A stretch of 64,000 nucleotides of DNA from Acidobacteriota bacterium (GCA_022562055.1 JADFQA010000007.1:3680-67679); one strand, 5' to 3'; shown: positions 14,401 to 61,658, numbered from the stretch's first letter. The notes: generated by a model not told the origin, from the sequence alone. Translations and numbers: made by a program.

Positions 14401-14820
14401 TCCCTGGAGACCGAGGCGCCGTCCGTCGTCGGGCGAATACAACGTTGCAATGCCGTCGTTTGCGAGAGCCTTGACTTCGTCGGGCAGGATCGTGCCACCA
14501 CCACCGCCGAACACCTGTATGTGGTTGCCGCCTCCGTCGTTGAGCAATTCGCGAACGTACCTGAAGAACTCGTCGTGGCCACCCTGGTAGGACGTGATCG
14601 CGATGGCATGTGCGTCTTCCTGGAGGGCGGTCTGAACGATGTCGCGGGCCGTACGGTTGTGACCGAGATGGATAACCTCGACACCGGATGCCTGGAGAAT
14701 GCGCCGAAACATGTTGATCGAGGCGTCGTGCCCGTCAAACAGGGAGGTCGCGGTTACAAAGCGAAGCGGTGATCCTTTGGACTCTGGTTGTTTGACCTCG
14801 GTGGACTGTGTCTGAGTCAC
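11446..14820 (-). CDS. icmF: Fused isobutyryl-CoA mutase IcmF (B12-binding domain, MeaB-like G-protein domain, and mutase TIM-barrel domain)
   Basis: 1124 aa. N-terminal [10 protein letters not shown] cobalamin-binding motif, central [14 protein letters not shown]-loop with NKAD motif, and a C-terminal methylmalonyl-CoA-mutase-like catalytic domain. Confidence 0.9.
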
Positions 14821-33608: not shown

Positions 33609-34760
33609 GTGAGGCAACGGGGTTGGACGATGGTTGCAACCTTTGCGGCTCTGTCTCTTGCGACTGCCTCCTGCGGCACCGTGGAGCCTGCGATCGCCGG
33701 AGCCGCCCCGCGTGGAGTACCGTCGACCTTGCCGCCGCCGACAACGACAACAACGCAGGACCCGGCGCTCACCGCGACCGAGGGTTACATCCGCATACCC
33801 CCCGGCGGTGCGGATCTCTACAACAGCGCAAACGGATCTGTGGTGCAGAGCATTGCTGAGGGCTTGACACTTGGATTCGTTTCCCGATCAGGCGAATGGC
33901 TCGAAGTCATTACCACCTGTGGGACGACAGCGTTTGTGACCGACACCCAAGTTGTGTTGTTCCCACGGGCCGCCATTTCCACAGGGACTGATTTATCGAA
34001 ACTGGTGATCGTCATCGACCCAGGTCATGGCGACAGGGATTGGGGTGGTGTTGGGCCCACCGGTCTGTCTGAAAAGAGCGTGAACCTCGACATCTCGGCC
34101 CGCCTCGCGTCTCTCCTCGAAACGCCGCATGACATTGACTTCACCACCGGAGAAGTGACCGTTGGAACGACCTACCCAGCCGTGCACGCTGCGTTGCTCA
34201 CACGATCTGCCGATGGGCCCAATGATGGAGACTACGAACTTGGCCTTGCGCACCGCGCCGGACTGGCCAACGCCGCAGGAGCCGCCGCCTTGATTTCGAT
34301 TCACAACAACACCGTACCCCTGAAAAAGACCGACAAGCCGGGTACCGAGGTGTACTACTCACTGGCCGCGGAGGACTCCGATCGGCTTGCGGGACTCGTG
34401 TATGACGAACTCGTCAAGTCAGTGGCCTCATTCACCGCTGAGTGGACCGGTGGAATCTCGCTCGGCGCCAGAGCGAGGCGAGACCCCGACACCGGCAGCG
34501 ACTATTACGGACTCCTCCGGCGGGCGACAATGCCGGCGGTGATCGTCGAAGGTATCTACATTTCAGAGCCGGAGGAAGAGGCACTGCTCAAGACGGATGA
34601 GTTCCGACAGGCCTACGCCGTCGCGGTGTATCGCGGCATCGTTCGATTCTTCACGACGAGCGACACGAGCACAAGCATTCAAGAGCCTGAACCGTTTCCC
34701 GACGATGCGGGCAAGTTGTCGAATCGGGCATGCCAAGTCCCCACACAGCCGGCGAGTTGA
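33609..34760 (+). CDS. N-acetylmuramoyl-L-alanine amidase (Amidase_3) lipoprotein with N-terminal SH3-like domain
   Basis: Lipobox LSLATASCG; VIVIDPGHGDRDWG, ISIHNN and EGIYISEPEEE amidase_3 motifs. Confidence 0.8.
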   Translation: MRQRGWTMVATFAALSLATASCGTVEPAIAGAAPRGVPSTLPPPTTTTTQDPALTATEGYIRIPPGGADLYNSANGSVVQSIAEGLTLGFVSRSGEWLEVITTCGTTAFVTDTQVVLFPRAAISTGTDLSKLVIVIDPGHGDRDWGGVGPTGLSEKSVNLDISARLASLLETPHDIDFTTGEVTVGTTYPAVHAALLTRSADGPNDGDYELGLAHRAGLANAAGAAALISIHNNTVPLKKTDKPGTEVYYSLAAEDSDRLAGLVYDELVKSVASFTAEWTGGISLGARARRDPDTGSDYYGLLRRATMPAVIVEGIYISEPEEEALLKTDEFRQAYAVAVYRGIVRFFTTSDTSTSIQEPEPFPDDAGKLSNRACQVPTQPAS

Positions 34761-36037
34761 CGGTGGAACGTATCGTTTTGCGGTTAGCCCTCGTGGCGGC
34801 ATTGGCGGTATCTGCGTGTTCCGTGGGTGGATCAGGTTCGCTGCGGGACGAGTCTGCGCCGCTCGGTACGTTGACGCCACTCACAGTTTCGTCAACGAGC
34901 ACGAGTACAACGTCGACGACGACCACCACATCAACGACCAGCACAACCACTACGACGGTCGTGCCAATTGGAGTCCCCGAACCATTCACATTGCCGGTCC
35001 CTCCAGCACCTGGACTCGAGGACGGTTTTTCTGGGACCGGCATGGCGACAGTCCCCGCCGGGGGTGCGGCAATTTATGACATCGGCGGGCAAACGCAGCA
35101 AGTACTGGCACGCGAGGGTCTCGTGTTTGTCGTCACTGGGAGCGCGGTAGGCGGGTGGCTTGAGATAGTCACAATGTGCGACACACGGGCCTGGGCGAGG
35201 GCTAGCGACATGTTGCTCTCGGGTCCAGGGTCCGGCGGGGACATCGGCAAGAGTTTCGATTTCTCTGAAGCCGTGATCGTGCTCGACCCGGGGCACGGAG
35301 GTCCGTCGAATATCGGTGCCGTCGCCGTGACCGGACTCAAGGAGAAAGATGTCAATGTTGACATAGCCCGACGCGCCCGTGACCTCTTTGCCGCTCCACA
35401 CAACGTGGATTGGGATGAGGGGACGGTTTACACCGGCACGCAAGTGCCTGCAGCGGCACGCATCATTGTTACCCGGACCGGCTCTGACGAACTTGCTGAC
35501 TATGAGGCCGGGTTGTTCTTTCGAGCAGAGCTCGCAAACGCAATGGGTGCCGATGCCTTCGTTGCCATTCACAACAACGCTGGGCATGACAGGGTTTCGG
35601 AGGCCCCCGGATCTGACGTGTACTACCAGAGTCAGATCGATGATTCTCGTCGATTTGCGACGATCATGGTCGAGGAATTCAACCGGAGTTTCGCACCGTT
35701 CGGTACCGACTGGGTAGGGGTCCAGGACACCGGAGCAAAGTCGAGGCTTTCTACGAAGAGCCCCGGCAAGCAGTACTACGGCGTTTTGAAGCGGACCGAA
35801 ATGCCGGCCGTAATCGCTGAGGGTGCATTCATGTCCAGCAGGTCTGAGGCCGACCTGCTCGCAACTCCTGAGTTTCGTCAGGCATACGCAGAAGCCGTGT
35901 ACCGGGCGGTCGTACGGTTTCTCACGGATGATGCTTTTGGCGACGCACCAAGTTTCGACCCAAAGACCTGGAGCGGGTTCGCCGGTTCAGGTGATGCCAG
36001 ACCGACGTGCAAAATTCCGTCGCAAGACGATTCGTGA
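34757..36037 (+). CDS. Paralogous N-acetylmuramoyl-L-alanine amidase (Amidase_3) lipoprotein with Ser/Thr-rich linker
   Basis: TTGA start/stop overlap with the upstream paralog. Lipobox LAVSACS. STSTSTTSTTTTTSTTSTTTTT linker. Same domain order as the upstream gene (VIVLDPGHGGPSN, AIHNNAGHD, EGAFMSSRSEAD). Confidence 0.75.
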   Translation: MTVERIVLRLALVAALAVSACSVGGSGSLRDESAPLGTLTPLTVSSTSTSTTSTTTTTSTTSTTTTTVVPIGVPEPFTLPVPPAPGLEDGFSGTGMATVPAGGAAIYDIGGQTQQVLAREGLVFVVTGSAVGGWLEIVTMCDTRAWARASDMLLSGPGSGGDIGKSFDFSEAVIVLDPGHGGPSNIGAVAVTGLKEKDVNVDIARRARDLFAAPHNVDWDEGTVYTGTQVPAAARIIVTRTGSDELADYEAGLFFRAELANAMGADAFVAIHNNAGHDRVSEAPGSDVYYQSQIDDSRRFATIMVEEFNRSFAPFGTDWVGVQDTGAKSRLSTKSPGKQYYGVLKRTEMPAVIAEGAFMSSRSEADLLATPEFRQAYAEAVYRAVVRFLTDDAFGDAPSFDPKTWSGFAGSGDARPTCKIPSQDDS

Positions 36038-36115
36038 CACCGTACGCATCGGCCTGTGCATGACACCGCTTGGATGTCGTTGCTCACACGCGGCCTCCAT
36101 CGAGAGGGCGAGCGG

Positions 36116-37030
36116 TTAGGAGTCCGAGTACACCAGCCGGTCGATCACGGTGCCGCCCGGCGTCTGCAGGATCACCGTGTCTCCGCCGTTGTTCCACACC
36201 GATCGACCGTTGCACCAAAAGACGTCCCGGGTCGTGTCGTCTCCGCACCCGGAATGGAGGCGGACTGACGTTCGCGCTGCGAGCACATACCCGTTCGGGA
36301 ATCTGAATCTGTGCGAAGACGATTCATCGCGGACGATGAAGTCGCCGATATCGATATCCTCTGCACTACGGTTGGTTATCTCGATCCATTCCTCGACGAG
36401 GTTCTCGTCATCGGGACCTGGGGGGTTCGCCTGGAGGCCCGAGATTTCTAGGTCGGCCGGGATGTCACCGCAGACCGTCAGTCCCCACATGCCGCGTGCC
36501 TCCGCAAAGGCTGCGGCCTCGACGTCTTTCAACTGGGCAGCCAGGGTCGTATCGTCTTGTAGCGCCAACGCATATCCGTCTTTGACAAGGTCGGCGTTGA
36601 CGAGCGATGTCGGCGTAAATAGAAAACGCAAGAGACGTCCAAAACGGTCGGCGTCTTCGCCGTCGGAAACGAGCCACACGGTCGTACCCGCAAGCTCGCT
36701 CAGCCGGTCGCCGGCCTCGGTACCGAAACATTCATCTCGTTCCGGCGCGTTGATTCCGAGTAGGCGAACTTCCTCCTGGCGGCCGTCAATGTCCACCAGC
36801 AATGAGTCCCCGTCGAAGACTTTGATAACAGCCGCTTGCACGGAACCCTCGGGTTGTGCAATGGTTGTCGAGGGGCCGGAAGGAGCGCTCGTATCGGCTG
36901 GCGGAGTCGTTGATCGTCCGGGAGATGCGGAGTCTGCAGTCCGATCGGGTGTGGTGAAGGGAGCGCCGCACCCCGCCGCGATCAGCGCAAGGACCACAAC
37001 GGGCGCAGCAACAGTACGGATGATTCGCAT
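36116..37030 (-). CDS. Secreted thermonuclease (SNase-like) lipoprotein with C-terminal lamin-tail domain (LTD)
   Basis: Lipobox LIAAGCG. SNase motif VIKVFDGDSLLVDIDGRQEEVRLLGINAPE. C-terminal EEWIEITNRSAEDIDIGDFIVRDESS...FPNGYVLAARTSV resembles LTD. Confidence 0.8.
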   Translation of the reverse strand: MRIIRTVAAPVVVLALIAAGCGAPFTTPDRTADSASPGRSTTPPADTSAPSGPSTTIAQPEGSVQAAVIKVFDGDSLLVDIDGRQEEVRLLGINAPERDECFGTEAGDRLSELAGTTVWLVSDGEDADRFGRLLRFLFTPTSLVNADLVKDGYALALQDDTTLAAQLKDVEAAAFAEARGMWGLTVCGDIPADLEISGLQANPPGPDDENLVEEWIEITNRSAEDIDIGDFIVRDESSSHRFRFPNGYVLAARTSVRLHSGCGDDTTRDVFWCNGRSVWNNGGDTVILQTPGGTVIDRLVYSDS

Positions 37031-37090
37031 GCCGAAACGCTAGCGCCTCGCACGTCAACGGCGCGTTCGTGCGTTCCGCCTTCAACTGGC

Positions 37091-38416
37091 CTAGGCGAAC
37101 ATGGGGAGGACTTCGTATGAGCCGCCCAACAGCGTCTCGTGGTCAGCTTTGAGCCAACCACCGAGGATCGATGCGTAGTACGAGCGCGTGTCGAGCGTGT
37201 TGGCCACGTTGCCACGTTTGTCAAGGTTGGTGAGGCTTGCGGGTTCGCCGTATCGGCCGCCGTTGAGAGCCCCGCCGATCACCATGTGGCTGCTCGCAGT
37301 TCCATGGTCTGTCCCAGATCCGTTCCATGCCGCCCTCCTACCGAACTCCGACGTTGTCATGACGGCGACGTTGCTGCCACGACCAGCGGCGTCGACCGCT
37401 GCAAAGAAACTCTGGAGCGCAACGTCGAGATCCATGAGGAGGTCGGTTTGCCGGCTCGCCTGATCCTTGTGTGTGTCGAAGTCGCCCCAGCCATGCACAT
37501 AGATGACGCGAGGCGGGACAGGGGCAACGGTGAGCGCTGCGGCCACCCGCATTGACTCGCCAAGGCTGGAACGATCGGTGTCTTCTTCGGGACCGTCGCC
37601 GCTGGCTTGCAAGATCGAAGCAACCTTGTCGGCAGCTCCCACGGTTGCGGCGATAGCGGCCCGTACACGATCGATCACAACGGTGTCGTCGAACGGCGCT
37701 GGAGCGAATTGGCCCCACATACCCATGAGTTCGTCGTTCGTGTCCACCCATGGCGGCAACGTGGGACTGAGCCCCGACATGTCCTGCAGGCCGATGACCG
37801 TTGCATTCGTAGCGAGCATTGCGGGGGAGATTCCAGGTCCGACTGCGACGCCCGCGAGCGGGTCTCCTGCGCCGACGGTGCCGTCGAGATACCTGCCGAG
37901 CCACCCTGTCCCGGTGAGGCCATCGGGCGAACCGGACCACCATGTCGCCATCGAGGCGAAGTGGGAGAGATCGGGGCTTGGATACCCGACCCCCTCCACT
38001 ATCGCCACCTGGCCCGCTGCATAGCGCTGAGCGACAAACGCCAAGGAAGGGTGCAAGCCCAACTCTGCATCCAACGCGAGCGGCTCCTCGATCGCCATCG
38101 TGCGGCGAAGGTCAAAATAGGCGTCCTTGGAGTACGGGATGAACGTGTTGAGGGCGTCGTTGCCGCCACCCATTTCAACAACCACCAAGGTGCGATCGAT
38201 ACGCGGCGCAAGCGTGGTCGACGGCGTGAGGGTGCCCGCAGTGGTTGTCGTGGCGGCTGGTGTATTCGTTGACACTGCCGTGTTTGTTGGGTTGGCGCCA
38301 AAAGTTTTGATGGTCCAGCTTCCGATCGCGCCGACCGCGACGGTTGCTCCGAGACCGGTAACGAACCTTCTTCTGGTGAATGCCTTCTTCGAGAGGTCGG
38401 GTGTTGAGTTTGTCAT
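37091..38416 (-). CDS. DUF1501 family protein (alkaline-phosphatase/sulfatase-like fold) with Tat signal
   Basis: Twin-arginine motif TRRRFVTGLGATVAVGA; the remaining sequence matches the remembered DUF1501 profile (VVVEMGGGNDALN..., TSEFGRR...GTDHG). Confidence 0.8.
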   Translation of the reverse strand: MTNSTPDLSKKAFTRRRFVTGLGATVAVGAIGSWTIKTFGANPTNTAVSTNTPAATTTTAGTLTPSTTLAPRIDRTLVVVEMGGGNDALNTFIPYSKDAYFDLRRTMAIEEPLALDAELGLHPSLAFVAQRYAAGQVAIVEGVGYPSPDLSHFASMATWWSGSPDGLTGTGWLGRYLDGTVGAGDPLAGVAVGPGISPAMLATNATVIGLQDMSGLSPTLPPWVDTNDELMGMWGQFAPAPFDDTVVIDRVRAAIAATVGAADKVASILQASGDGPEEDTDRSSLGESMRVAAALTVAPVPPRVIYVHGWGDFDTHKDQASRQTDLLMDLDVALQSFFAAVDAAGRGSNVAVMTTSEFGRRAAWNGSGTDHGTASSHMVIGGALNGGRYGEPASLTNLDKRGNVANTLDTRSYYASILGGWLKADHETLLGGSYEVLPMFA

Positions 38417-39657
38417 GTCAGGTGGTACTCCGGTGAGTTGATCGCAAGAGCGAGTCGGGTTGTGGCGTCGGGGGCGTTGTCAAGCACGCTGATCGTGTTC
38501 GACGAGATGTCGAACAGGCCGAGCCGGCCAAGGATGTCTGCCGACGACAGGTCGCCCCGTATATCTGTGGCGACGCCGGCAAGATCGAAGGCATGGACCA
38601 GGGCGAACGGGTTTAGGAGAGCGTCGCCGCCGAGAAACCCGGCGACGTTCGGCGGGCTAAAAGGGAGATAGTTGACCCGTTCCAGGGAACGGGCGAGGAA
38701 TCGCAGCTCGACTCCTTCGCCGAAACCTTGGAGAATCCCGACGGCGGCTTCGAACGGTGTACGTATCTTGATGCCAATCACGTCGTCGTCGAGGAACTCC
38801 GCGGATGTCACGATCGCCGTCACCAACGGCAGGATCTCGTAGTCTGTAGCAAAGTCGTCGCTCAGCCGGTCGAGTGTTGCAGTACTGGGCCACGCACCGA
38901 CCAGTTCTCGGTAGAGCTTCTGCGTAATGTTCCGTGCGGTCATGGGGTGATCGAGCAGAATATCGATGGCCTCGGTTGAGCCGTGTCTGCCGGTCACGCC
39001 GAGGTAGGTTTTCTCGCCGTCGTCGTGGAACTCGGGTACGAGTTGGCTTTGCCAGATCTCGACCGAGAACAGGTCACGACTACGTCTAGCCGGGCGGTTG
39101 ATGACCCAACCGGAAAACGCCCGCGAGGCCTCAATAACGTCCTGTTCCGTGTAGTTACCGCGGCCGATAGTGAAGAGTTCCATGACTTCGCGGCCGTAGT
39201 TTTCGTTGATAGAGCCGGCGCGGTTCTCGACTCCGTCGAGGAACATCAGCATTGCAGGGTCGATGGTGATTGCGTGGAGTAGGTCGGCGAAACTGCCGAG
39301 GGCGAGATCTCTGACGAGCAGGTGCTGTTGCAACATCAACCAACCGACATTCACCTTGCGCGCCCCGGTTGCGAAGTGGTCATGCCAAAACCAAGCCATG
39401 CGCTCCTCGAGCGGGTCACGACCGGACGTGAGCTCGGCGAACAAATACCGTAAGGGGGCCTGGCGCTGCTCGCGAGTCTTGGCTTGTTCGAATGTTTGGG
39501 GGGCGTCTACTTCGGGGGTGTGGCGGACAGGGCGTGATCGGTCGAGCAGCCCATCAATTGCCGCTTGCGGGTCTGAGTACCCGCCGAGCTCCGCTCCGCC
39601 GCTGCCGACACCTATCCGCCGCATGACATGGCTGATTTGTTCGTTTTTGCTTGCCAT
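38413..39657 (-). CDS. DUF1800 family protein, coupled to DUF1501
   Basis: NENYGREVMELFTIGRGNYTEQDVIEASRAFSGW is the hallmark DUF1800 block. The stop overlaps the DUF1501 start by 4 nt. ATG at 39657. Confidence 0.8.
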   Translation of the reverse strand: MASKNEQISHVMRRIGVGSGGAELGGYSDPQAAIDGLLDRSRPVRHTPEVDAPQTFEQAKTREQRQAPLRYLFAELTSGRDPLEERMAWFWHDHFATGARKVNVGWLMLQQHLLVRDLALGSFADLLHAITIDPAMLMFLDGVENRAGSINENYGREVMELFTIGRGNYTEQDVIEASRAFSGWVINRPARRSRDLFSVEIWQSQLVPEFHDDGEKTYLGVTGRHGSTEAIDILLDHPMTARNITQKLYRELVGAWPSTATLDRLSDDFATDYEILPLVTAIVTSAEFLDDDVIGIKIRTPFEAAVGILQGFGEGVELRFLARSLERVNYLPFSPPNVAGFLGGDALLNPFALVHAFDLAGVATDIRGDLSSADILGRLGLFDISSNTISVLDNAPDATTRLALAINSPEYHLT

Positions 39658-39679
39658 ACTTGTCTCGGCGTTGTTCGTG

Positions 39680-39777
39680 GGAGACGGCCGCTCCGCACTT
39701 GACCTGTTCGATCTTGTCGCCCAAGGGAGGAGGGTCCGTGACGGAGTGTCGCGACAATGTGCGGTGCGGCCGTCTCC
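39680..39777. repeat. Long-range inverted repeat (perfect 12-bp arms GGAGACGGCCGC / GCGGCCGTCTCC, extended to about 22 nt with mismatches) flanking a 74-nt spacer
   Basis: Found by eye in the DUF1800/PEBP divergent intergenic region. Confidence 0.5.
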
Positions 39778-39904
39778 GGTTGCGTTGTTGACAACAGTGT
39801 GGCTCACACATGTACGAAGAGTGTGTGTGCGGTGTTGTTTGTGTATTTGCGACCCACCACGACTGGCGGGCTAAGGTCGTTGGCGCGCACAACGGAGGTC
39901 CAAC

Positions 39905-40528
39905 ATGAAATTAACGAGCTCGTCGTTCACCGATGGGGGGAAGATACCGCCAGCGCTTGCCCTTGCGGTGCCGGCGGATCCCGGCCCAGTCGCTTTCAGC
40001 GGCAATCGAAACCCTCATCTAGCTTGGACCGAGGTACCGACGGGCACGGGTTCGTTTGTCGTGACGTGTATCGACCATGACTGTCCCAGCGAACCCGACG
40101 ACGTGAACCAACCCGACAGAGAGGTGCCTTCACTACTCGCACGCGTCGACTTCACGCACTGGCTACTCGCCAACATCCCTGCGTCGGTTGTCGAGATCTC
40201 CGAAGGCGCTCACTCCGATGGGGTTACCGAGCGTGGTAAGGCGGCTGACGCGGCGCCCATCGGTGTCCACGGCCAGAACGACTACACAGGCTGGTTTGCA
40301 GGAGACCCCGATCTCGAAGGACACTGGAACGGTTACGACGGAAGCGCACCGCCGTGGAACGACTCAATTGTGCATCACTACGAGTTCACCGTATTTGCGC
40401 TCGACGTCGAGGCGCTTCACCTGGACCCCGGGTTCACGCGCGACGAGTTACGCGAGGCAATGAAGGGGCACATCCTCGACCGGTCGTCGATGATCGGCCT
40501 GTATTCGTCAAACCCCAGACTCCACTGA
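39905..40528 (+). CDS. YbhB/YbcL family PEBP (Raf-kinase-inhibitor-like) protein
   Basis: MKLTSSSFTDGGKIP...NPHLAW N-terminus and HWLLANIP motif characteristic of bacterial PEBP. GGAGGT RBS. Confidence 0.8.
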   Translation: MKLTSSSFTDGGKIPPALALAVPADPGPVAFSGNRNPHLAWTEVPTGTGSFVVTCIDHDCPSEPDDVNQPDREVPSLLARVDFTHWLLANIPASVVEISEGAHSDGVTERGKAADAAPIGVHGQNDYTGWFAGDPDLEGHWNGYDGSAPPWNDSIVHHYEFTVFALDVEALHLDPGFTRDELREAMKGHILDRSSMIGLYSSNPRLH

Positions 40529-47847: not shown

Positions 47848-49203
47848 TTAGCTCTTCGGTGTTGGTTCGAGATCGAACGATGTCCGCGCCTCGCGAGCGG
47901 CTTCCACGTCTACTCGGGATAGCAGGATTCCACCAGTCACGAAGAAGATCAGAATCGACAGGATGGCGGGTCGACCGGAGCCGGTCTGGAAGCTCACCAC
48001 CGCAAAGATCAGCGGTCCGAAGATGGCGCTGAACTTGGAGAACACGGAGAAGAACCCAAAGAACTCAGCCGATGCCTCCTCGGGAATCATTGAGGCGTAC
48101 AGCGACCGAGATAGTGCCTGGGTGCCGCCGAGTACCAACCCGATCGTTGCGGCGAGAACAAAAAATGGGACAGCTTGACCAGCAGGGAGAGAAAAACCGC
48201 CAATCGTGATGCCCGACCAACCGACAAGCGACACCAGAATTGCGTTTTTCGGTCCGATGGCGCGGGCCAGTGCACCAAAGGCCAGCGCGCCCCCGAACGC
48301 GACGAACTGCACAATGAGGAAGGCCAGCGCAATAGTCTTGAGTTCGAGACCCAATGTTTCTTCAGCGTACGCCCCCGAGATGTTGATAACGGTTTGAGTG
48401 CCGTCGTTGTACAGCAGGAACGCGACGACAAACATCATGAGGTGCTTCATTTTGATGATCTGCCTACCGGTGTTGACCGTTCGGGTAATCCCAAGCCTGA
48501 CGTAGTCCCGCCAGGAACCACCCGAGATCGACGCTGCCCTTTCGGGGATGTGCATTCTGCCGAGTGCGAACCACGTAAATCCAATCCACCACACTCCGGC
48601 GCCGGCGATTGCGATGCGCACCGCGGTGCCGGTCTCTAGCCCGGTCAACGAACCGGGGCCCTCGCTAAATGTGATGAGCTGGAGTGCAAGCAGCAGGTAC
48701 AGTCCGCCGCCGACGTAGCCGTACGCATACCCCTTGGACGACACCGAATCGATCGTTTCGTCCGTCGTGATGTCGACAAGGAACCCGTCGTACATCACGT
48801 TTGCTGCGACGAAACCAATGTTGGTAATAAGGAACAACCCGAGGAACAACGCCACCGAACCATCAGGGACAAGCGTCATGAGGATCATCACGAGACCACC
48901 CGTCACCGCGGCTGCGCGGAGGAACTTGCGTTTGGCGCCCGAGAAGTCGGCCACCGCCCCAAGGACCGGCATGATCGCGAACAACACGATCGCACCGATC
49001 GACACGACCCCGGACCACAGTGTCTGGCCGGACATCTGCACTCCGAACACGCCGTAACCGTCATCGGGCACGATGCCGTCGGTGAAGAACGGTGCGATTA
49101 CCGCTCCCGCCATGACGATGTAGGCACTGTTCGCCCAGTCGTACATCGCCCAGCCGAATATTGTCCGTTTGTCGTTTACGCTTGTTCCCACCCGGTCTCC
49201 CAT
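47848..49203 (-). CDS. MFS transporter (UMF1/Atg22-like), paralog of 28315-29571
   Basis: 451 aa; 12 TM helices; N-terminal FGWAMYDWANSAY. Confidence 0.8.
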   Translation of the reverse strand: MGDRVGTSVNDKRTIFGWAMYDWANSAYIVMAGAVIAPFFTDGIVPDDGYGVFGVQMSGQTLWSGVVSIGAIVLFAIMPVLGAVADFSGAKRKFLRAAAVTGGLVMILMTLVPDGSVALFLGLFLITNIGFVAANVMYDGFLVDITTDETIDSVSSKGYAYGYVGGGLYLLLALQLITFSEGPGSLTGLETGTAVRIAIAGAGVWWIGFTWFALGRMHIPERAASISGGSWRDYVRLGITRTVNTGRQIIKMKHLMMFVVAFLLYNDGTQTVINISGAYAEETLGLELKTIALAFLIVQFVAFGGALAFGALARAIGPKNAILVSLVGWSGITIGGFSLPAGQAVPFFVLAATIGLVLGGTQALSRSLYASMIPEEASAEFFGFFSVFSKFSAIFGPLIFAVVSFQTGSGRPAILSILIFFVTGGILLSRVDVEAAREARTSFDLEPTPKS

Positions 49204-49255: not shown

Positions 49256-49467
49256 CGCTGTCGACTCGTCAGAGGCCGGCAGTGAAGGTGTCGTCGCAGC
49301 GAGTCTTCGGTAGTTCGGGACACGGTGTTTCGGCAACTCGGGCGGTGGCAGTGTGGCGACCCTCTCAACTATCACCGGACCGGCTTGAGCCCGCCGGTGC
49401 GCCTGCTCGCTCCGTGTCCGGTATCTTGTGTGGTGGAAGTACGTTGTCTAACGATTGGGTCCGCCGT

Positions 49468-50373
49468 TTGACGGGCAGCATTACGGTTGTTGGTTCGATC
49501 AACCACGACATCGCGGTTCGTGTGCCCCGCCACCCGGTGCCGGGGGAGACGATCATTGGGAGCGGGCATTTCACGTCTCCAGGTGGGAAGGGGGCAAACC
49601 AGGCAGTTGCGGCGGCCCGGTTGGGTGCGTCGGTGATGATGGTCGGTGCGGTCGGTGACGACGCACCTGGAGCGAACCTTGTTGATGGGTTGGAGGCCGA
49701 GGGAATTGACTGTACAAACGTTTCGGCAAGCACCCGCGTAGCCACCGGGATTGCCCTCATCACCCTCGACATGGCGGGTGAGAACTCGATCGTGGTCAGC
49801 CCCGGGGCGAACGGAACAGTGTCCGTAGACGACGTCACAATCAGTGCGGTTGCAGATGCGGTCGTCGTGCTTATCCAGCAGGAGATCCCGGCAGAGGCTG
49901 TCGCTGCGGCGGTGTTGCATGCAACAGGCAAGGTCATTTTGAACCCCGCACCTGCGCGCACCGTGAGTCCCGAAGTGTTGGCGAGGGTCGACGTACTTGT
50001 GCCCAATCGATCCGAGCTCGCCGCTCTCGCCGGGTCGGCCGAAGCCGGCTCGCTCGATGAAGTCGCCGACCAGGCGCACGGGATTTCAGGACCGGGTCTT
50101 GTGGTCGTGACGTTGGGCGGCGACGGGGCAATGATCATCGACGGCGAATCCGTCACCATCGTCGAGGCAGCTCCGGTGACGCCGGTTGACACTACAGCGG
50201 CCGGCGACGCGTTCTGCGCCGGGTTGGCGTTCGGCATCGCCTCGGGATGGGATGTCCCGAGGGCAGTGCGGTGGGGCGCTCTTGTCGGTGCGCTGGCCAC
50301 GACTAAGGAGGGCGCACAGCCATCGTTGCCAACCCACGACGCCGTCATGCGCTTCGCCACATCGATGGGTTAG
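49468..50373 (+). CDS. rbsK: Ribokinase (PfkB family sugar kinase); start uncertain
   Basis: ITVVGSINHDI N-terminus, GGKGANQAVAAARLG, and C-terminal TTAAGDAFCAG anion-hole/DTxGAGD motif. Confidence 0.7.
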   Translation: MTGSITVVGSINHDIAVRVPRHPVPGETIIGSGHFTSPGGKGANQAVAAARLGASVMMVGAVGDDAPGANLVDGLEAEGIDCTNVSASTRVATGIALITLDMAGENSIVVSPGANGTVSVDDVTISAVADAVVVLIQQEIPAEAVAAAVLHATGKVILNPAPARTVSPEVLARVDVLVPNRSELAALAGSAEAGSLDEVADQAHGISGPGLVVVTLGGDGAMIIDGESVTIVEAAPVTPVDTTAAGDAFCAGLAFGIASGWDVPRAVRWGALVGALATTKEGAQPSLPTHDAVMRFATSMG

Positions 50374-50382
50374 GCTCGCTGG

Positions 50383-51321
50383 ATGTCTACCCGCCCAATC
50401 ATCATCGACACCGACCCGGGTCAAGATGACGCCGTTGCCATCATGTTGGCAATAGCTTCTCCCGAACTCGACATTTTGGCTGTCACCGCCGTTGCCGGCA
50501 ACGTGCCGCTCCCGCTCACAGAGCTGAACGCTCGCACGATCGTCGAGGCGTGCGGCAGACCAGACATACCGGTGTTCGCGGGCGCCGCAAAGCCAATGCT
50601 CAGAGACCTCGTAACGGCTGAACATGTGCACGGGAAGACAGGTCTCGATGGAGCGGACTGTCCTGCGCCGACGATTCGCCTCGCCCCAGGTCACGCCGCG
50701 CAAGCAATCGTCGATATCGTTCACAAGGCGGAGGAAAAGATCACCCTCTGTGCACTCGGACCGCTTACCAACGTCGCGATTGCCTTGTTACTCGATCCGT
50801 CGATCTCTGAGAATCTTGAACAGATCGTTCTCATGGGAGGGGGCTTCTTCGAAGGTGGCAATGTCACACCCGCCGCCGAGTTCAATATCTACGTCGATCC
50901 GCACGCAGCGCACATTGTCTTTGCGTCTGGGATCGATATCGTCATGATGCCGCTTGACATGACGCACAAGGCGATTGCCACTGACCCCGTGATACAACGG
51001 TTCGCCAACCTCGGCACCCATTGTGGTGACGCTGCAGCGGGGATGATTGGGTTCTATTCGCGACACGATTCCGAAAAGTACAGCGTCGCCGGAGCCCCGC
51101 TCCACGACCCCACAGTGATTGCCTATCTGATCGATCCCGAGCTCTTCTCAGGTCGAGCGTGCTCCGTGGAAATCGACACGCACTTGGGACCCTCGCTGGG
51201 TGCAACACAAGTCGACTGGTGGGACGTCACCGACGAACCTCCAAATGCAATGGTGATGCGCGACGTCGACTCTGAAGGGTTCTTTGATCTCTTGGTGGAA
51301 CGGATTGCCGGGTTGCCGTAA
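50383..51321 (+). CDS. Nucleoside hydrolase (inosine-uridine preferring IunH/RihA type)
   Basis: N-terminal IIIDTDPGQDDAVAI aspartate cluster characteristic of nucleoside hydrolases; 312 aa. Confidence 0.85.
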   Translation: MSTRPIIIDTDPGQDDAVAIMLAIASPELDILAVTAVAGNVPLPLTELNARTIVEACGRPDIPVFAGAAKPMLRDLVTAEHVHGKTGLDGADCPAPTIRLAPGHAAQAIVDIVHKAEEKITLCALGPLTNVAIALLLDPSISENLEQIVLMGGGFFEGGNVTPAAEFNIYVDPHAAHIVFASGIDIVMMPLDMTHKAIATDPVIQRFANLGTHCGDAAAGMIGFYSRHDSEKYSVAGAPLHDPTVIAYLIDPELFSGRACSVEIDTHLGPSLGATQVDWWDVTDEPPNAMVMRDVDSEGFFDLLVERIAGLP

Positions 51322-55091: not shown

Positions 55092-55547
55092 ATGCGCTGT
55101 GTCATTCAACGTGTTTCTTCAGCCTCGGTCACTGTCGCCGGCGAATCCGTTGGCGCAATCGGTCAGGGTCTGTTGATTCTCATCGGTGTTGGACAAGATG
55201 ACACCGACAAGGATGCCCGTGTTGTGGGCCGCAAAGTCGCCAACCTCCGAATCTTCGAGCGGGACGGGAAGATGGACCTCGCGGTCGGGGATGTCGGCGG
55301 CGCGGTGCTAGTCGTGAGCCAGTTCACGCTGCTAGGCGCAACAAAGAGGGGCCGGCGTCCTTCGTTTACTGACGCGGCACCGCCAGATCAAGCTGAGCCG
55401 CTCGTCGACCTGGTTGTGACGGCAATTCGAGATTGCGGAGTACCGGTCGAGACCGGACGTTTCGGGGCTTTCATGTCTGTCTCGCTCGTCAACGATGGCC
55501 CGGTGACTCTGGTGATCGACACGGTCGACGGTGCAGTCGCGGGTTAG
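55092..55547 (+). CDS. dtd: D-aminoacyl-tRNA deacylase
   Basis: MRCVIQRV start, SQFTL and NDGPVT motifs; 151 aa. Confidence 0.85.
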
Positions 55548-58500
55548 CTACTACTACCACCATCCTCCTGGATGTACTGCGTACCCGCATCACAGAATCG
55601 TGAGAAGTCGCAGTAGTGACAGGCTGGCGATGGCGAAGTGGCAAACGTATCACCGGTCGCCTCAGTCAGCAACGAGTTTATGGCGTCGCGTTTTTCGTCT
55701 AACCAGACTTGTGTCGCTTCGACCTGCTCGTGGACCAGTTTGCCACCGCCGAGATACACAAAGCTGACAAACAGGCGGTCGGGCATAGACCCCAGAGCGC
55801 CGTTTCGGATGGCTAGTGCGTACGCCGCAAGTTGTAGGAAACGGTTTTCTCCGGTTTTGGGTCGGCCCGATTTGAAGTCGACCACGTCCCATGTGTCTGG
55901 CTCGAATTGATACACGGCGTCGATCCGGCCTCGCACTCCGCCCGCTTCGAGGTGAAGGTCAATCGCAACCTCAGTGAAGATCGGCGATGTAGATCCGAAC
56001 GGTGAATCGGTGAACGCAGCAAAGGCGGTAATGCCACGGTCAGCTTCGCCCGGCACGGTGTCGACGACGTCGGGGATGAGCTCTTCATCGAACCCGATGG
56101 TTCCCCGATTGTGCAGTTCGATGCGTCGGTGGAGTGCGGTCCCAGCGGCCATCGCGCCGGTCCTTCGCCGCGGCAACGGATCGACATGACTCCAGTAGTA
56201 GCGCTTTGCGCAGTCCCCAAGCGTGACAAGGCTCGTGACCGACAACTCCGCGGATCTTGTCGCTGTCTCATCGTCGGGTGGGTCGGGGAGCCCATCGAGG
56301 TGTAGTCCAAGCTGTTTCACGGCCGCATCGTAGGCCTCGGTGAGTGCTGCGTCGGTAGGGCGTTGCGAGTGCCCATCGGCGGCGGCCTTCAGCGCCTGTT
56401 TCCACCCGGACGGAAAGTGCGGATCGGGCGTTGGTGTATGGTCGGACAGCGTGAGCCGGTCGGGTCGGTCGTCAGCCTCCGTGTCGGGAAGGGCAAAAAC
56501 GCCGGCTACTTGGGCAATAGTGTCGTATAGATCGGACGGTTTCTTGGACCGCACACCCGTGTGCCAATGCGAACCGGTGGCGTACAGCCTGCGCTTCGCC
56601 CTGGTAGCGGCTACGTATGCAGTACGCCATTCTTGGGCGGCATGGATCGCTCGAAGCAAGACGATATCGTCCTTTTCGACACCGGTGAGGACCGGGAATG
56701 TCTCCGGGTCAAGACGAAGTTCGAATGGCAGGCTCTGCGCACTCTTGAGGGGATTGTCGTACCTGACCGATTTTGTTGGGAAGACTCCTTCGTCGAGTGA
56801 TGGGAGAAACACGGTGTCCCACTCAAGACCCTTTGCCCGATGCACGGTGAGTAGCCGTACTGCATCTTCCTGTGACGGTCGCGCGGTGTCGAGTTCCTCC
56901 GCGGCGCTTTCATCTGAAAGAATTTCAAGGTAGGCGACAAAGGTCTCGAGCGACGGTCTGCCCGTGAGCGGAGACCAATCGCCCGCAAGGTCCAGGAAGC
57001 GGTACAGGTTGAGGCGGGCGGACAGCGCGGCCGCCCGCGGGAGGGCGTCGATTTCGGACCATATCGACGTGAAGTCAAGGATGTTGCGACACAGAGTTGC
57101 CAGCGATTCGTGTTGCGCGCTGACGATCGCCTTGCGATACATGGTGCGGAACTCTTCAAGGCGGGTGCGAGCCTCGGCGTCGAGACCGGGGATGTCTTGC
57201 AGAGCCTCGATGGCTTCGATCAGCGAGCTGGTTGAATCCTGGTGGGTGGGTTTGGTGCGCTCTTGCCGAGTCCATCGCACCAGCGGCGCAAGATCGCCGA
57301 GACCCAGGCGAAATCTCGACCCCAACAAGACCCTGACGACTGCCGGCGAATCGTCAGGATGCGCAAGGAAGCGCAGCCACGCATAGAGATCGCTGATTAT
57401 GGGGATGTCGAGGAGTCCGCCGAGCGAAGCTACATCGACCGGAATCCCATGGTCTTCAAGGGCTTGGCGGATGAGTCCGATCGACTTGTTTTTGCGGACG
57501 AGGATTGCGATCTCTCGCCACGCGATTCCCTCTTCGAGCGAGAGGCGATGGATCTCGTCGGCGATCCAGGTGGCCTCGGCGTTTAGCGATACAAACCGGC
57601 GGGTCTCGACGATCGCCTGCGCCGCGTTGTCGGTGGCGATGAGGGGCTCAAAGTTTGCGTCGTGGAGCTTCCCCCGGATCGCGTTTGCGACATCGAGGAT
57701 GAGTTGGCCCGATCGTCGGTTCAGTGTTAGCGGCAGGGTGAGTGCAGGAGATCCCGAAGCCTGGCGAAAGTGGATAGGGAAGCCGTTGAAGTTCTCGAGA
57801 GAGGCCCCGCGCCATTCATAAATTGTCTGGTCGATGTCGCCGACTGCGGTGATCGGAAAGCCTTCCCCGAAAATGGCTTGGAGAAGCATCCGTTGTGCCG
57901 GGTCGGTGTCCTGGTACTCGTCGAGTAACGCAGTGTCGTACCGGGTTCGTATTGACTGGGCAACTTCGGGGTATGTGGTGACGAGCTCGTGCGCCTTGCC
58001 AATAAGGTCGCCGTAGTCGAGCACGTTGGCGGCTGATTTGAGGTCTTGATACCTTTCGACGACTCCGGCCAGCTCACGTCGTTTACGCCCGATCTCGTCG
58101 TCAACGAACGGAACTCGGGACGGGTGGACGAGATTCCCGCTGAGTTGCCGGCCGAGCGTTGCGGCTTCTCGAACACGCTGTTGCGGCGCGGTGAGATCTA
58201 GTTCTGCGTAGGTGCCACTTTTCACAGCCTCGTTGTAAAGAGTGAGCGTGAACCCGGCGCCGATGATTCGCGCGTCGCGTTCGACTCCAACCAAGGCGCC
58301 GAACTCGCGCAGGATGCTGAAGGCAAACCCGTGGTAGGTGGTCACCTCGACCTCTCTGCCTTCGGCGGCGAGACCCGGAAGGCGCGTGCGCAACCGCTCG
58401 GCGAGTTCTTCGGCGGCCTTGTTTGAAAACGTCAGCCCGAGGGTTCGTTCTGGGGCGAGGCCGTCGTCGATTGCGTGGACGAGACGCTCCACGATCGTCG

Positions 58501-58594
58501 TCGTTTTTCCGGTGCCGGCACCCGCGGACACACGGAGCGGCGCAAGTGGGGCGTCGATGATTGCTGCCTGCTCGGCGCTCGGTACGAATGTCAT
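55544..58594 (-). CDS. adnB: AdnB subunit of the AdnAB helicase-nuclease (UvrD-like motor plus C-terminal RecB-type nuclease with Cys cluster)
   Basis: Walker [11 protein letters not shown]-terminal nuclease motifs ([15 protein letters not shown]) and [13 protein letters not shown] at 58594 overlaps the adnA stop (ATGA). The longer track ORF start is rejected. Confidence 0.75.
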
Positions 58595-61533
58595 GCGAAC
58601 GACTCGACCCCCTCGGGAAACTCTGGGCACACGAGGCGTACGGGACAGCTTTCGCATTTCGGGCCGGGTGTTGGCGGAAACTCGTGTGCTGCAATACCCG
58701 CGGTGATGCGGCGCAGTTCTTCTTCGACAGCGTCGAGCTGGTTGGGCTCGAATGTTCTGACCGCAAACGAGCTTGCGAGCTCTTTGGATGGGTACCAAAA
58801 CTCGCCGCCTACCGATTCGTCGATCGCGAGGAGGCGTTCGTTGTTGCGTGAAGCAAGCATGTAGAAACCGAGTTGAAGCGAGATTGCAGCCTCGGCCTTG
58901 GTCGGGAGGTTCTTCGTCGTTTTGTAGTCAACGACGCGGAGGCCGTCAGGCGTGCGATCAATGCGGTCCGCGATGCCGGTCCATCTCACGCCATCGATGT
59001 CGAGTTCGAGACGCTGTTCGAGGCCGACGGGTTTCTTGTCGAACATGTTGTACTTGTAAAGGCGAGTGAGCGTTTCGACCGCTCGGTTGTGCCAGCTTTT
59101 CGCATACGGTTCGCCGGAGAAGTCGTTCGGATCGAATAACTTGTCGAGGTGTTCAAGAGCCTCGTCGAGGCTTGATGCTCGTGCGTGGTTGTCCCAGGCT
59201 GACCGTTCAACATCCTCAAAGATCTTGTGGATGAGGCTCCCGAACGTCGCTGCTGTGGTGGAGTCGGGACCGATGTGCAACTTTCGCTCGAGAACGTAGC
59301 GCCGCGGGCAGGTCGCGTACGACTCCCCTTGAGAGGGAGAGAGTCTGAGCGGCAGCGGGACGACGCCGAGATCGGTTCCCCGGGTGCGCATGCCTGCAAA
59401 CTCAGCGACGGGTCGCAGACCCCAGCGACTGCCTTGTGCCAAGAGCGACATTGCGGCGCGGCGTTCCGTTTCTGCAAGCGCAGGATCGGCGGTTTTGCGT
59501 CTCAACCACGCCTCGGCTTCGGTCGGGGTTATCGGCATTCGGTCTTGAGGTCCGAATATGTTGGCCTCGATGACCGGTGTTTCACCGGCGACGACCGGGA
59601 GGAATCTCGACGGCATGCCGGCTCCGAGAGAGCCACCTGTTGATGTAGCGGTCCAGATGACTGCATTACGTGCTCTTGTCATCGCGGTGTACGCAAGGCG
59701 ACGCTCTTCTTCAAGCCTGAACAGGCGATAGTTCGCGCTGTCGGTTGGCACATGCGCAAGCAGATGCCGGACACCCAGGTACGAGTCACCGGGTCGCAGG
59801 TCGGGGAACACACCTTCGACCGCGTCGGCGATAAATACGACGTCGAATTCGAGTCCCTTCGATTGGTGCAACGTAGAGATAACGACGCGATCTTGCATGG
59901 GCGCTCGATAGGAGAGCAGTGGTTGCGCCTCGAAGTCTTCGCTGTCGACGAGCGTTTGGTACTCCCGCAGCGTCGCCTCTGGATCGCGCTCATTCCATCG
60001 GCTGAGGACCTGTGAGAAGGAGGCCCAGGCCGCCCGCTCCTCCGCTCGCCCGGGGTCGTTTACGAGTTGTTTGATTGATGGAAGCCTCGACCAGATGTGC
60101 CAGAGCCCGTCTACGGCCGGCATCTCGGATGCCCAGGAGGCGTTGGAGAGTAGCTCTGCAAGCGCGTCGCCATCGGGTACACGACCGGCCAGGACGCCTG
60201 CAAGGGGTGTTGCTGTTGCTCTTGCGCTCGTCTCGATCTCGCGAACCTCGCCGACGGTTGCCCCGACCATCGGGCCCAGCAAGATGCGTCGAATCGCTTG
60301 ACGGTTTTCCGCAGTCTCCTCGGTGTCGGAGATCGCGGTAATGAGGTCGAGTACGAATCTCACCGCGGGCTGATCGGTAAGCCGACTGTCGGGGACGTCG
60401 TGGGCGAGCCCACGACGTTGAAGAGCGCGTGAGAGCTCGTTCAGGAACCTTTGTTTCGATCGGACGAACACTCCGATTCGCGACAGCGGGACATTCTGCT
60501 CAAGATGGAGCCGGTGGATTTCTTGGCCAATCCACTCAGCCTCCTGAGTCTTCTGGCCGAATATGAGGCACTCAACGCGTCCACCCTCTCGTGCGGGGAT
60601 GACGCTCCCAGGCGCACCTGGATCCTCCGGCGATATCACCCTCTGCGCAGCGGCAAGAACGTTTGCGGAAACGCGGAACGACGTAGTCAATGTGTGTCGC
60701 ACCGTTGGGCCGGGGAAGTCCTCTTCAAACGATGACACATGTTGTGGCGTTGCACCGCGGAACGAGAAGATCGATTGGAAGGGATCGGCAACAACCGTCA
60801 AATTACGCGTGCCGGCTGTCAGCGCTTGCAGCAATCCGACTTGAGATCTCGTCGTGTCTTGATACTCGTCGACGAGCACATAATCTACCAGCGGATCGTT
60901 CTGAGGACCGCTGTTGAGGATCGCTACTGCACCGGAAATGACCATTGCGTAGTCGATCCGGCCGGTTGCGATTACTCGCTGTTGATAACGCCGCAAGAAG
61001 GCGGGCAGGGGTCGCCAATCGGGACGGTCTGCTGCCAGATGTTCAATGTCGTCGGCGTCGAGGAGTTGTTCCGTTGCGCGCAGGGCAAAGTCGGTGATTT
61101 CACGAGCAAAGGTCGGGGAGCGCAGCAGGCCTCTAACGAGGGTGGGCCAATCCTTCGGGTCTTCGGTGGCGAGAAGGTCGCGCACCATTGCGGTTTGCTC
61201 AGGACCCGTCAGGATCACCGGAGGATTGGGCCACCCCGCGGCATCTGGCCACCGTTCCACGATGCGAGCAGCCAAAGAGTGGTAGGTCGAGATGTCTAGG
61301 TTGCCGACCGAGTTGTCAAGGCGTGCGCGGATGCGTTGGGAGATGTCAGCTGCGCCACGTCGGGAAAAGCTCAAAATGAGAACTCTGTCGGGTGCGGCGT
61401 CCCCCGATTCGAGAAGATGAACGGCGCGCCGAACCAGGAACTCTGTCTTGCCGGTGCCGGGTCCACCAACAATGATCTGGGTACCACTGGAGTCGCCGAT
61501 GGCGTCGTTCCAATCTTGTGGTGCTAGATCCAT
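58591..61533 (-). CDS. adnA: AdnA subunit of the AdnAB helicase-nuclease
   Basis: Walker A GGPGTGKTE. UvrD-like helicase motifs. C-terminal nuclease domain (GIADRIDRT, VVDYKTTK) with CESCPVRLVC. Shorter than and upstream of adnB, as in mycobacterial adnA-adnB. Confidence 0.75.
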   Translation of the reverse strand: MDLAPQDWNDAIGDSSGTQIIVGGPGTGKTEFLVRRAVHLLESGDAAPDRVLILSFSRRGAADISQRIRARLDNSVGNLDISTYHSLAARIVERWPDAAGWPNPPVILTGPEQTAMVRDLLATEDPKDWPTLVRGLLRSPTFAREITDFALRATEQLLDADDIEHLAADRPDWRPLPAFLRRYQQRVIATGRIDYAMVISGAVAILNSGPQNDPLVDYVLVDEYQDTTRSQVGLLQALTAGTRNLTVVADPFQSIFSFRGATPQHVSSFEEDFPGPTVRHTLTTSFRVSANVLAAAQRVISPEDPGAPGSVIPAREGGRVECLIFGQKTQEAEWIGQEIHRLHLEQNVPLSRIGVFVRSKQRFLNELSRALQRRGLAHDVPDSRLTDQPAVRFVLDLITAISDTEETAENRQAIRRILLGPMVGATVGEVREIETSARATATPLAGVLAGRVPDGDALAELLSNASWASEMPAVDGLWHIWSRLPSIKQLVNDPGRAEERAAWASFSQVLSRWNERDPEATLREYQTLVDSEDFEAQPLLSYRAPMQDRVVISTLHQSKGLEFDVVFIADAVEGVFPDLRPGDSYLGVRHLLAHVPTDSANYRLFRLEEERRLAYTAMTRARNAVIWTATSTGGSLGAGMPSRFLPVVAGETPVIEANIFGPQDRMPITPTEAEAWLRRKTADPALAETERRAAMSLLAQGSRWGLRPVAEFAGMRTRGTDLGVVPLPLRLSPSQGESYATCPRRYVLERKLHIGPDSTTAATFGSLIHKIFEDVERSAWDNHARASSLDEALEHLDKLFDPNDFSGEPYAKSWHNRAVETLTRLYKYNMFDKKPVGLEQRLELDIDGVRWTGIADRIDRTPDGLRVVDYKTTKNLPTKAEAAISLQLGFYMLASRNNERLLAIDESVGGEFWYPSKELASSFAVRTFEPNQLDAVEEELRRITAGIAAHEFPPTPGPKCESCPVRLVCPEFPEGVESFA

Positions 61534-61658
61534 AAACCCGTTTCTGCTTTCGCAGTGCACGATAACGGGTGGGTGTGACGTGAACCGAGCATTGATTTCC
61601 TTCGTTCCCTGGCGAAGACTCACTAGGGTTCGTGCAACCGTCAGTATCGGAGGAGATG

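Follow-up and report, generated by a model that had tools for sequence, protein, structure and literature searches.

Can the position of a secreted nuclease gene tell us what the DUF1800 and DUF1501 proteins do? These two families constitute one of the large uncharacterized extracytoplasmic enzyme pairs of bacteria, for which a reliable genomic context would be valuable, and the question is raised by a locus within 64,000 nucleotides of DNA deposited as Acidobacteriota bacterium (GCA_022562055.1, JADFQA010000007.1:3680-67679; this whole stretch is hereafter called the window). As read from the window, three consecutive minus-strand open reading frames (ORFs) fill positions 36116-39807: the DUF1800 gene (38413..39657, 414 aa from the ATG at 39657, the frame being able to reach further 5′ to a GTG at 39807), the DUF1501 gene (37091..38416, 441 aa) and a gene for a lipoprotein nuclease (36116..37030, 304 aa) with a staphylococcal-nuclease (SNase) domain at approximately 36485-36769 and a lamin-tail domain (LTD) at approximately 36125-36457. 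An earlier note on this DNA proposed that the trio forms an extracellular module for scavenging nucleic acids or phosphoesters, and that the nuclease would therefore give the DUF pair a functional context. Our comparative data favour inherited synteny: the locus probably consists of two independent units lying side by side, an autonomous DUF1800-DUF1501 cassette and an SNase-LTD nuclease gene that apparently has its own promoter. Adjacency to the nuclease says little about the function of the pair.

All three proteins belong to known families. DUF1800 matches the Pfam family PF08811 over its full length (279.3 bits; cut-off 26.1; E=8.5e-83; profile positions 1-418 of 419) and, like other members, is encoded 5′ of DUF1501, which in turn matches PF07394 (93.3 bits; cut-off 27). 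The two genes are joined by a 4 nt overlap of stop and start codons (ATGA, 38413..38416, minus strand), as the earlier note had described, an arrangement that points to translational coupling. Gene calls in four other public assemblies of the locus give identical 414, 441 and 304 aa products, and the public-database entry P0121 is a 414 aa protein 100% identical to the DUF1800 of the window. The pairing itself, which had been claimed to be widespread and obligate, proved to be exactly that: DUF1800 lies immediately 5′ of DUF1501 on the same strand in 79/79 evaluable related loci, with the 4 nt overlap called in 57 of the 79, and the same order is found in all eight of the annotated plasmid or chromid loci that we inspected from six phyla (Deinococcota, Thermoleophilia, Bacteroidota, Alpha- and Gammaproteobacteria, and Acidobacteriota). 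In one related locus (L078:6723-9296) a single called ORF of 857 aa covers part of DUF1800 and all of DUF1501; it may reflect a genuine fusion, a frameshift or an error of the gene caller, and it caused the two families to be merged during the clustering of neighbours. DUF1800 directly upstream of DUF1501 has been described as a predicted operon in proteobacteria, some of which link the pair to horizontally transferred chitin synthase genes (PMC5122149). Searches of the full-text literature turned up no functional study of either family. The pair would, on this distribution, be a self-contained and translationally coupled two-gene cassette that occurs across many phyla.

The conservation of the nuclease adjacency was examined in 80 loci of the closest DUF1501 relatives (41-84% identity, one genome per species), using tblastn for homologs of the window neighbours, a codon log-odds gene caller with start optimization, clustering of neighbours and a neighbour-joining tree of DUF1501. 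A GC3-based gene caller mis-called an amidase gene, and was dropped in favour of the codon log-odds caller. The relatives of the locus are metagenome-assembled Acidimicrobiia. The nuclease is the next same-strand gene after DUF1501 in 12 loci, all of them within one Acidimicrobiia clade of 22, and in a further member of this clade (L082) it is found 4 kb away from the pair. Because the basal members of the clade carry the nuclease after the pair, the adjacency seems to go back to the ancestor of the clade, with subsequent loss or disruption in approximately ten lines (L008-L011, L014, L015, L019, L024, L061 and L082). In the other DUF1501 clades, none of about 56 evaluable loci had the nuclease next to the pair, and a third group of DUF1501 loci has unrelated neighbours. 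An SNase gene was likewise absent beside the pair in all eight annotated loci, where the neighbours are cytochrome oxidase genes, a major facilitator superfamily (MFS) sugar porter, a metal sensor with an extracytoplasmic function (ECF) sigma factor, and LysR regulators. On a plasmid of Chondrinema litorale (Bacteroidota; L168:2241-3035), an endonuclease/exonuclease/phosphatase-family gene and a TonB-dependent receptor gene divergently adjoin the pair; among the loci inspected, this is the only other nuclease- or phosphatase-type neighbour of the pair outside the Acidimicrobiia clade. The clade with the nuclease link is a very small part of the DUF1501 family, which has 10,636 representatives at 50% identity.

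The sister clade offers a natural negative control for the reading of function from adjacency. There, prfA (peptide chain release factor 1) and then prmC follow DUF1501 in 29 of about 42 loci, and DUF1385 and a luciferase-like oxidoreductase (both by Pfam) are encoded upstream, so that the pair sits in a housekeeping block between rpmE/DUF1385 and prfA-prmC. The nuclease (12/22) has kept its place no better than the unrelated prfA has, and genes in these genomes stay in order over long periods without having a function in common. As the prfA-prmC adjacency is equally faithful, conserved adjacency in these genomes carries little weight for function. The sister-clade block (L035-L076 and others, for example L064:4119-11512) runs DUF1385, oxidoreductase, pair, prfA, prmC and a small ORF, with frequent 4 nt overlaps, and DUF1385 is also found near the pair in Miltoncostaea (L167).

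The search in the opposite direction gave the same picture. When metagenomes were scanned with the aligned nuclease orthologs, 80 loci with 37-62% identity were obtained, 62 of which had enough upstream sequence. DUF1501 was directly upstream of the nuclease in five of these, and neither DUF1501 nor DUF1800 was present anywhere in the locus in 57. Elsewhere, the upstream neighbours of the nuclease are genes for an alpha/beta hydrolase, rhodaneses, rpsM/rpsK and a DivIVA-like protein. Five loci that have the nuclease without the pair still carry malate synthase and isocitrate lyase genes upstream (L088, L092, L100, L104 and L114), some of them also keeping the amidase and aldehyde dehydrogenase genes downstream of the nuclease, and two loci of the nuclease clade have the pair without the nuclease in the same malate synthase-isocitrate lyase setting (L015 and L024). 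The existence of pair-less and nuclease-less versions of one neighbourhood indicates that the two units were gained and lost independently at a single chromosomal site. We propose that the nuclease would belong to a conserved block that runs from malate synthase and isocitrate lyase through the nuclease to the amidases and aldehyde dehydrogenase, and that its adjacency to the pair would be no more than a gene order inherited within one Acidimicrobiia clade. The association with nucleases that the earlier note expected in other genomes is thus confined to part of one clade, and the nuclease is not a dependable clue to what the pair does.

Separate transcription of the nuclease gene is suggested by a conserved hexamer near its start codon. 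The sequence reads GC-TAGCGT-TTCGGC-ATG, with TAGCGT, a −10 element of TANNNT type (37037..37042, minus strand), 6 nt before the ATG and no Shine-Dalgarno sequence. TAGCGT is kept in the three closest relatives (L001, L006 and L007) and the rest of the 60 nt spacer between DUF1501 and the nuclease (37031..37090, minus strand) is not; the TANNNT hexamer recurs in most nuclease orthologs that adjoin the pair. Among the evaluable metagenome loci of the nuclease, 56/73 have TANNNT 5-9 nt before the in-frame start, where 3.7 were expected from shuffled sequences, and the count in the other two frames of these 73 loci was 0 and 0. The arrangement of hexamer and start is present with or without the pair upstream. 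In Mycobacterium tuberculosis, TANNNT is centred 7-12 bp upstream of 73% of primary transcription starts, and leaderless transcripts make up a large share of the transcripts (PMC3898074). Because the hexamer of the nuclease genes is conserved close to the start and matches this leaderless pattern, we infer for the nuclease gene a promoter of its own, which would yield a leaderless mRNA and make the gene a separate transcription unit. A scan for sigma-70 promoters found none in 35900-40100, and an intrinsic-terminator scan of the same region returned one hairpin only, on the plus strand at 39805-39829, which is below the shuffle expectation of 3.6.

The identity of the nuclease was as the earlier note had described it, a lipoprotein thermonuclease that carries a lamin-tail domain and is encoded on the same strand, 60 nt downstream of DUF1501. 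The protein matches the SNase family PF00565 (43.6 bits; cut-off 21) and the lamin-tail family PF00932 (71.9 bits; cut-off 34.3), and falls far under the cut-offs of the NCBIfam equivalogs EcnA and NucI (47.1 versus 180 bits and 34.6 versus 250 bits). Its signal peptide ends in LIAAGC, and the lipobox Cys21 is invariant in 12 orthologs, with A, G or S before the Cys. Also invariant among these orthologs are DGD(S/T), EVRLLGINAPE, GR and four further Cys residues. The catalytic and Ca2+-binding residues of the Staphylococcus aureus nuclease are D21, R35, D40, E43 and R87. D75, R89, E97 and R132 of the window protein, all invariant, are the equivalents of D21, R35, E43 and R87; unlike in the staphylococcal thermonuclease, the position of the Ca2+ ligand D40 is occupied by an invariant residue, Asn94 (GINAPE). 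By its domain composition the protein is a thermonuclease-family member with a C-terminal LTD, an architecture type already known among extracellular nucleases. It resembles LTD-bearing extracellular nucleases such as ExeM of Shewanella (PMC6085458) in being secreted or membrane-anchored and in its lamin-tail domain, and the thermonucleases in keeping the residues equivalent to D21, R35, E43 and R87. However, the catalytic domain of ExeM is of EEP/YhcR type, in contrast to the SNase domain with C-terminal LTD found here; the LTD of ExeM is dispensable for extracellular DNA degradation (PMC6085458). The gene would encode a membrane-tethered extracellular nuclease of Ca2+ type, transcribed from a leaderless-type promoter.

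DUF1501 carries the twin-arginine translocation (Tat) motif TRRRFVTG that had been noticed before, and the motif was confirmed: it scores 17.9 bits against TIGR01409 (cut-off 16.7), and neither of the twin arginines, R15 and R16, varies among 25 close relatives or among ten cross-phylum relatives. The Tat signal spans residues 14-33 (38318..38377, minus strand; TRRRFVTGLGATVAVGAIGS) and is followed by a Thr/Pro-rich linker. Where the window protein has this linker, several orthologs (P0084, P0105, P0112, P0114 and P0063) have, besides the twin arginines, a sequence AAC(S/T/N) that resembles a lipobox (at about columns 55-75 of the DUF1501 alignment), which suggests that they are Tat-exported lipoproteins.

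The fold of DUF1501, which the earlier note had called alkaline phosphatase/sulfatase-like, found weak support. An AlphaFold2 (AF2) model built on an alignment of 25 sequences reached a predicted local distance difference test (pLDDT) value of 63 and a predicted template modelling (pTM) score of 0.74. All of its top Foldseek matches in the Protein Data Bank (PDB) belong to the alkaline phosphatase (AlkP) superfamily, namely Xanthomonas nucleotide pyrophosphatase/phosphodiesterase (NPP), ENPP5, sulfatases, LtaS and YejM, with probabilities of up to 1.0 and E-values of about 1e-4 to 1e-3, but with TM scores of only 0.25-0.35. The model therefore weakly supports membership of the AlkP superfamily and singles out no sub-family. 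Searches of the DUF1501 and DUF1800 sequences against PDB chains with phmmer gave no match, and a DUF1501 profile found only a marginal sulfatase match among solved structures (E=1.3).

Conserved residues point in the same direction. Across six phyla, at 24-32% identity, D87, S151, H152, D314, H316, R360, N365, D370 and H371 of DUF1501 are invariant. Enzymes of the AlkP superfamily have a layout of Asp, nucleophile, Asp-His and Asp-His, and the order of the invariant DUF1501 residues (an Asp, a Ser motif, DxH and DH) fits this layout of metal-site residues at the level of sequence. We consider it probable that D87, S151, H152, D314, H316, D370 and H371 mark a metal and nucleophile site, and DUF1501 would then be a Tat-exported metallo-hydrolase with D87, a Ser151-His152 nucleophile motif, D314-x-H316 and D370-H371 as its putative, presumably competent, active site. 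The protein is a typical PF07394 member in its clear profile match and Tat signal. Unlike the sulfatases and NPP, it has the nucleophile motif P-x-L-S-H-F, which matches neither CxPxR, as in the sulfatases, nor the Thr motif of NPP, and it differs from other AlkP-superfamily enzymes in requiring a DUF1800 partner and in having no sequence-level match to solved structures.

Several observations weigh against the reading of the locus as two independent units. The spacer between DUF1501 and the nuclease contains no terminator-like hairpin, and read-through co-transcription from DUF1501 into the nuclease is possible. Within the clade, wherever the nuclease follows the pair, the spacer is always short (9-119 nt) and the genes are on the same strand, and the adjacency persists down to approximately 50% DUF1501 identity and 40% nuclease identity. 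The neighbour-joining tree that defines the DUF1501 clades carries no support values. The predicted active-site loops of the DUF1501 model have pLDDT values below 50, and the complex and joint export that we propose for the pair (see below) are predictions. Two further points are compatible with scavenging: DUF1501 and the nuclease are both predicted to be tethered to the cell surface via Thr/Pro-rich linkers, and the top structural match of DUF1501 is a nucleotide pyrophosphatase/phosphodiesterase.

A scavenging operon restricted to this clade is a legitimate hypothesis, albeit one that we consider unlikely. It holds that the pair and the SNase-LTD protein draw on extracellular nucleic acid for phosphate or nucleosides: the nuclease would release 3′-phosphorylated oligo- and mononucleotides from DNA or RNA, and the AlkP-superfamily enzyme would remove or cleave the phosphoesters. 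The exploitation of extracellular DNA (eDNA) to obtain phosphate is established in Vibrio cholerae, where the Dns and Xds nucleases act with periplasmic phosphatases (PMC4714964), and this sequence of a secreted nuclease followed by phosphoesterases is the functional model behind the claim. The co-orientation, short spacers and undetected terminator speak for the hypothesis, as do the adjacency in 12/22 clade loci with the deepest branches included, the leading place of Xanthomonas NPP and the ENPP5 phosphodiesterase among the fold matches, and the nuclease/phosphatase-family neighbour on the Bacteroidota plasmid. However, the link is absent outside the clade (0 of about 56 evaluable and 0/8 annotated loci), the pair lies upstream in only 5/62 nuclease loci, each unit has been lost separately from the same neighbourhood, the adjacency is kept no better than that of prfA, and the nuclease has a conserved −10 hexamer of its own. 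The sulfatase, LtaS and YejM fold matches are also about as good as the match to NPP. In contrast to the V. cholerae system, which is Pho-regulated and genetically demonstrated, the evidence here consists of genes, with neither a Pho link nor conserved co-occurrence: pst and pho genes (pstSCAB, phoU, phoPR and phoD-type) were not found in the 64 kb window, and a PHO box of the pattern GKTCAY-N5-GKTCAY, which is of Streptomyces type and may not be the Acidimicrobiia motif, is absent from both promoter regions and occurs in the window at or below the number expected by chance. The phosphate connection that the earlier note envisaged therefore found no support, and its scavenging module for the most part fails under the refuting conditions that the note itself had set, with 57/62 nuclease loci lacking the pair.

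A more specific version, that in this clade a Tat-exported DUF1800/DUF1501 heterodimer is a surface phosphoesterase working downstream of the SNase-LTD protein, stripping 3′-phosphates from the released oligonucleotides or cleaving them, so that the trio mines extracellular nucleic acid while a structured leader upstream of DUF1800 senses a related metabolite, is quite improbable. If true, it would provide the first substrate for a family of more than 10,000 sequence clusters.

The AF2 model of DUF1800 is confident (pLDDT 91.3, pTM 0.91) and nearly all helical, and the invariant motifs WFWHDHF and NENxxRExxE suggest a binding site. A signal peptide is absent from DUF1800 in 40/40 Acidimicrobiia homologs, in which the protein opens with the conserved domain, and also in the Ensifer, Chondrinema and Miltoncostaea loci, whereas the DUF1800 proteins of the Vibrio, Sphingomonas and Acidisarcina loci have a lipoprotein or Sec signal of their own. 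The RR motif of DUF1501 is present in all of these. As DUF1800 has its own signal in some bacteria and none in others, Tat hitch-hiking is predicted: the signal-less DUF1800 of the window is most likely exported bound to the Tat-signal-bearing DUF1501, and the strict translational coupling of the genes fits a stoichiometric assembly. Known hitch-hiker complexes of the Tat pathway include those of the small and large [NiFe] hydrogenase subunits, HyaA/HyaB, and DmsA/DmsB. The pair resembles these in that one subunit has a twin-arginine signal and its partner none, and in that the genes are adjacent and coupled. It differs in having no evident redox cofactor and in the Sec or lipoprotein signal that DUF1800 has in some taxa, and complex formation and co-export are here predicted from the genes.

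It is also improbable, on our assessment, that DUF1800 stays in the cytoplasm as a maturation factor or Tat-signal chaperone, comparable to the REMP chaperones or the sulfatase-maturing enzymes, with only DUF1501 being exported. The missing signal in all 40 close homologs and the strict translational coupling would fit such a role, and the invariant polar motifs (HDH, NEN and RE..E) look more like a site that binds a ligand or metal than like part of a passive scaffold. Yet the signals of the Vibrio, Sphingomonas and Acidisarcina proteins imply that DUF1800 acts outside the cytoplasm there, and a proteome fraction of vesicle/envelope type from Entotheonella contained DUF1800 proteins (PMC12981691). 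Most simply, the two proteins would form a complex that works beyond the cytoplasm: the all-helical DUF1800 would bind DUF1501 in the cytoplasm and leave with it via Tat, and the product would be a two-subunit esterase at the cell surface. The self-contained cassette, the seven putative site residues invariant across phyla, the hitch-hiking prediction and the leaderless signature of the nuclease family are all testable points.

The genes that follow downstream of the nuclease, in convergent orientation, encode two Amidase_3 proteins, an aldehyde dehydrogenase and a GAF histidine kinase (Pfam). That the two Amidase_3 proteins, as N-acetylmuramoyl-L-alanine amidases, jointly remodel the cell wall or an eDNA matrix with the pair and the nuclease is hardly credible. 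The amidase genes do stand directly past the nuclease, in an arrangement that recurs in related loci, but they are encoded on the other strand, remain beside the nuclease in loci without the pair (L088, L100 and L103-L105) and do not accompany the pair in most loci. The two Amidase_3 genes are tandem paralogs (33609-36037, plus strand), the longest ORFs of which overlap by 31 nt; the public calls are shorter, at 331 and 376 aa.

The region upstream of DUF1800 contains a candidate regulatory element. The divergent intergenic region (39658..39904) separates DUF1800 from a PEBP gene of the YbhB/YbcL family (39905-40528), beyond which lie the isocitrate lyase and malate synthase genes. Within it, a structured 5′ leader of DUF1800 (39680..39777, minus strand) has a 19 bp closing stem round inner hairpins and ends about 22 nt before the ATG, with a minimum free energy of −55.6 kcal/mol (z=−5.2). 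In the three closest relatives, the leader is conserved far more strongly than the intergenic DNA on either side of it; one of these relatives (L006) has three compensatory pair changes. The leader has no trailing U-tract. No match in the window reached the gathering threshold of Rfam 15, the region 39550-39950 giving only chance-level matches (E >=0.55). A covariance model from the three closest relatives did not find the leader in the other 77 of the 80 loci, and structure of this sort is not a general feature of the DNA upstream of other DUF1800 genes. On these three sequences, the leader may be a lineage-specific regulatory or stabilizing element. The divergent region also holds a CACACA...TGTGTG inverted repeat (39802-39830) and repeats of AACAACRCC type (39666-39843), the 9-mer occurring eight times in the window, with most copies elsewhere, against 1.2 expected.

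The taxonomic labels of the locus deserve comment. P0121 is deposited as 'MAG: Acidobacteria bacterium' (MAG, metagenome-assembled genome) and L017 has the same label; as the close relatives are all Acidimicrobiia, these labels are probably wrong. The remainder of the 64 kb consists of ordinary genes for metabolism, transport and repair. A PfkB-family sugar/nucleoside kinase and an inosine-uridine-preferring nucleoside hydrolase are encoded in tandem (49282-51321, plus strand) and adjoin an ATG22-like MFS transporter gene (47848-49203), a possible nucleoside salvage unit approximately 10 kb from the nuclease. On the minus strand, 11446-14820 encodes a 1124 aa fusion of B12-binding, MeaB-like GTPase and methylmalonyl-CoA-mutase domains (IcmF-type), followed by a TetR regulator, and 55544-61671 encodes two large adjacent proteins of AddAB/AdnAB type, each with UvrD-like helicase and PD-(D/E)XK nuclease domains; the latter ORFs overlap by about 200 nt as called, and one start codon is probably mis-set.

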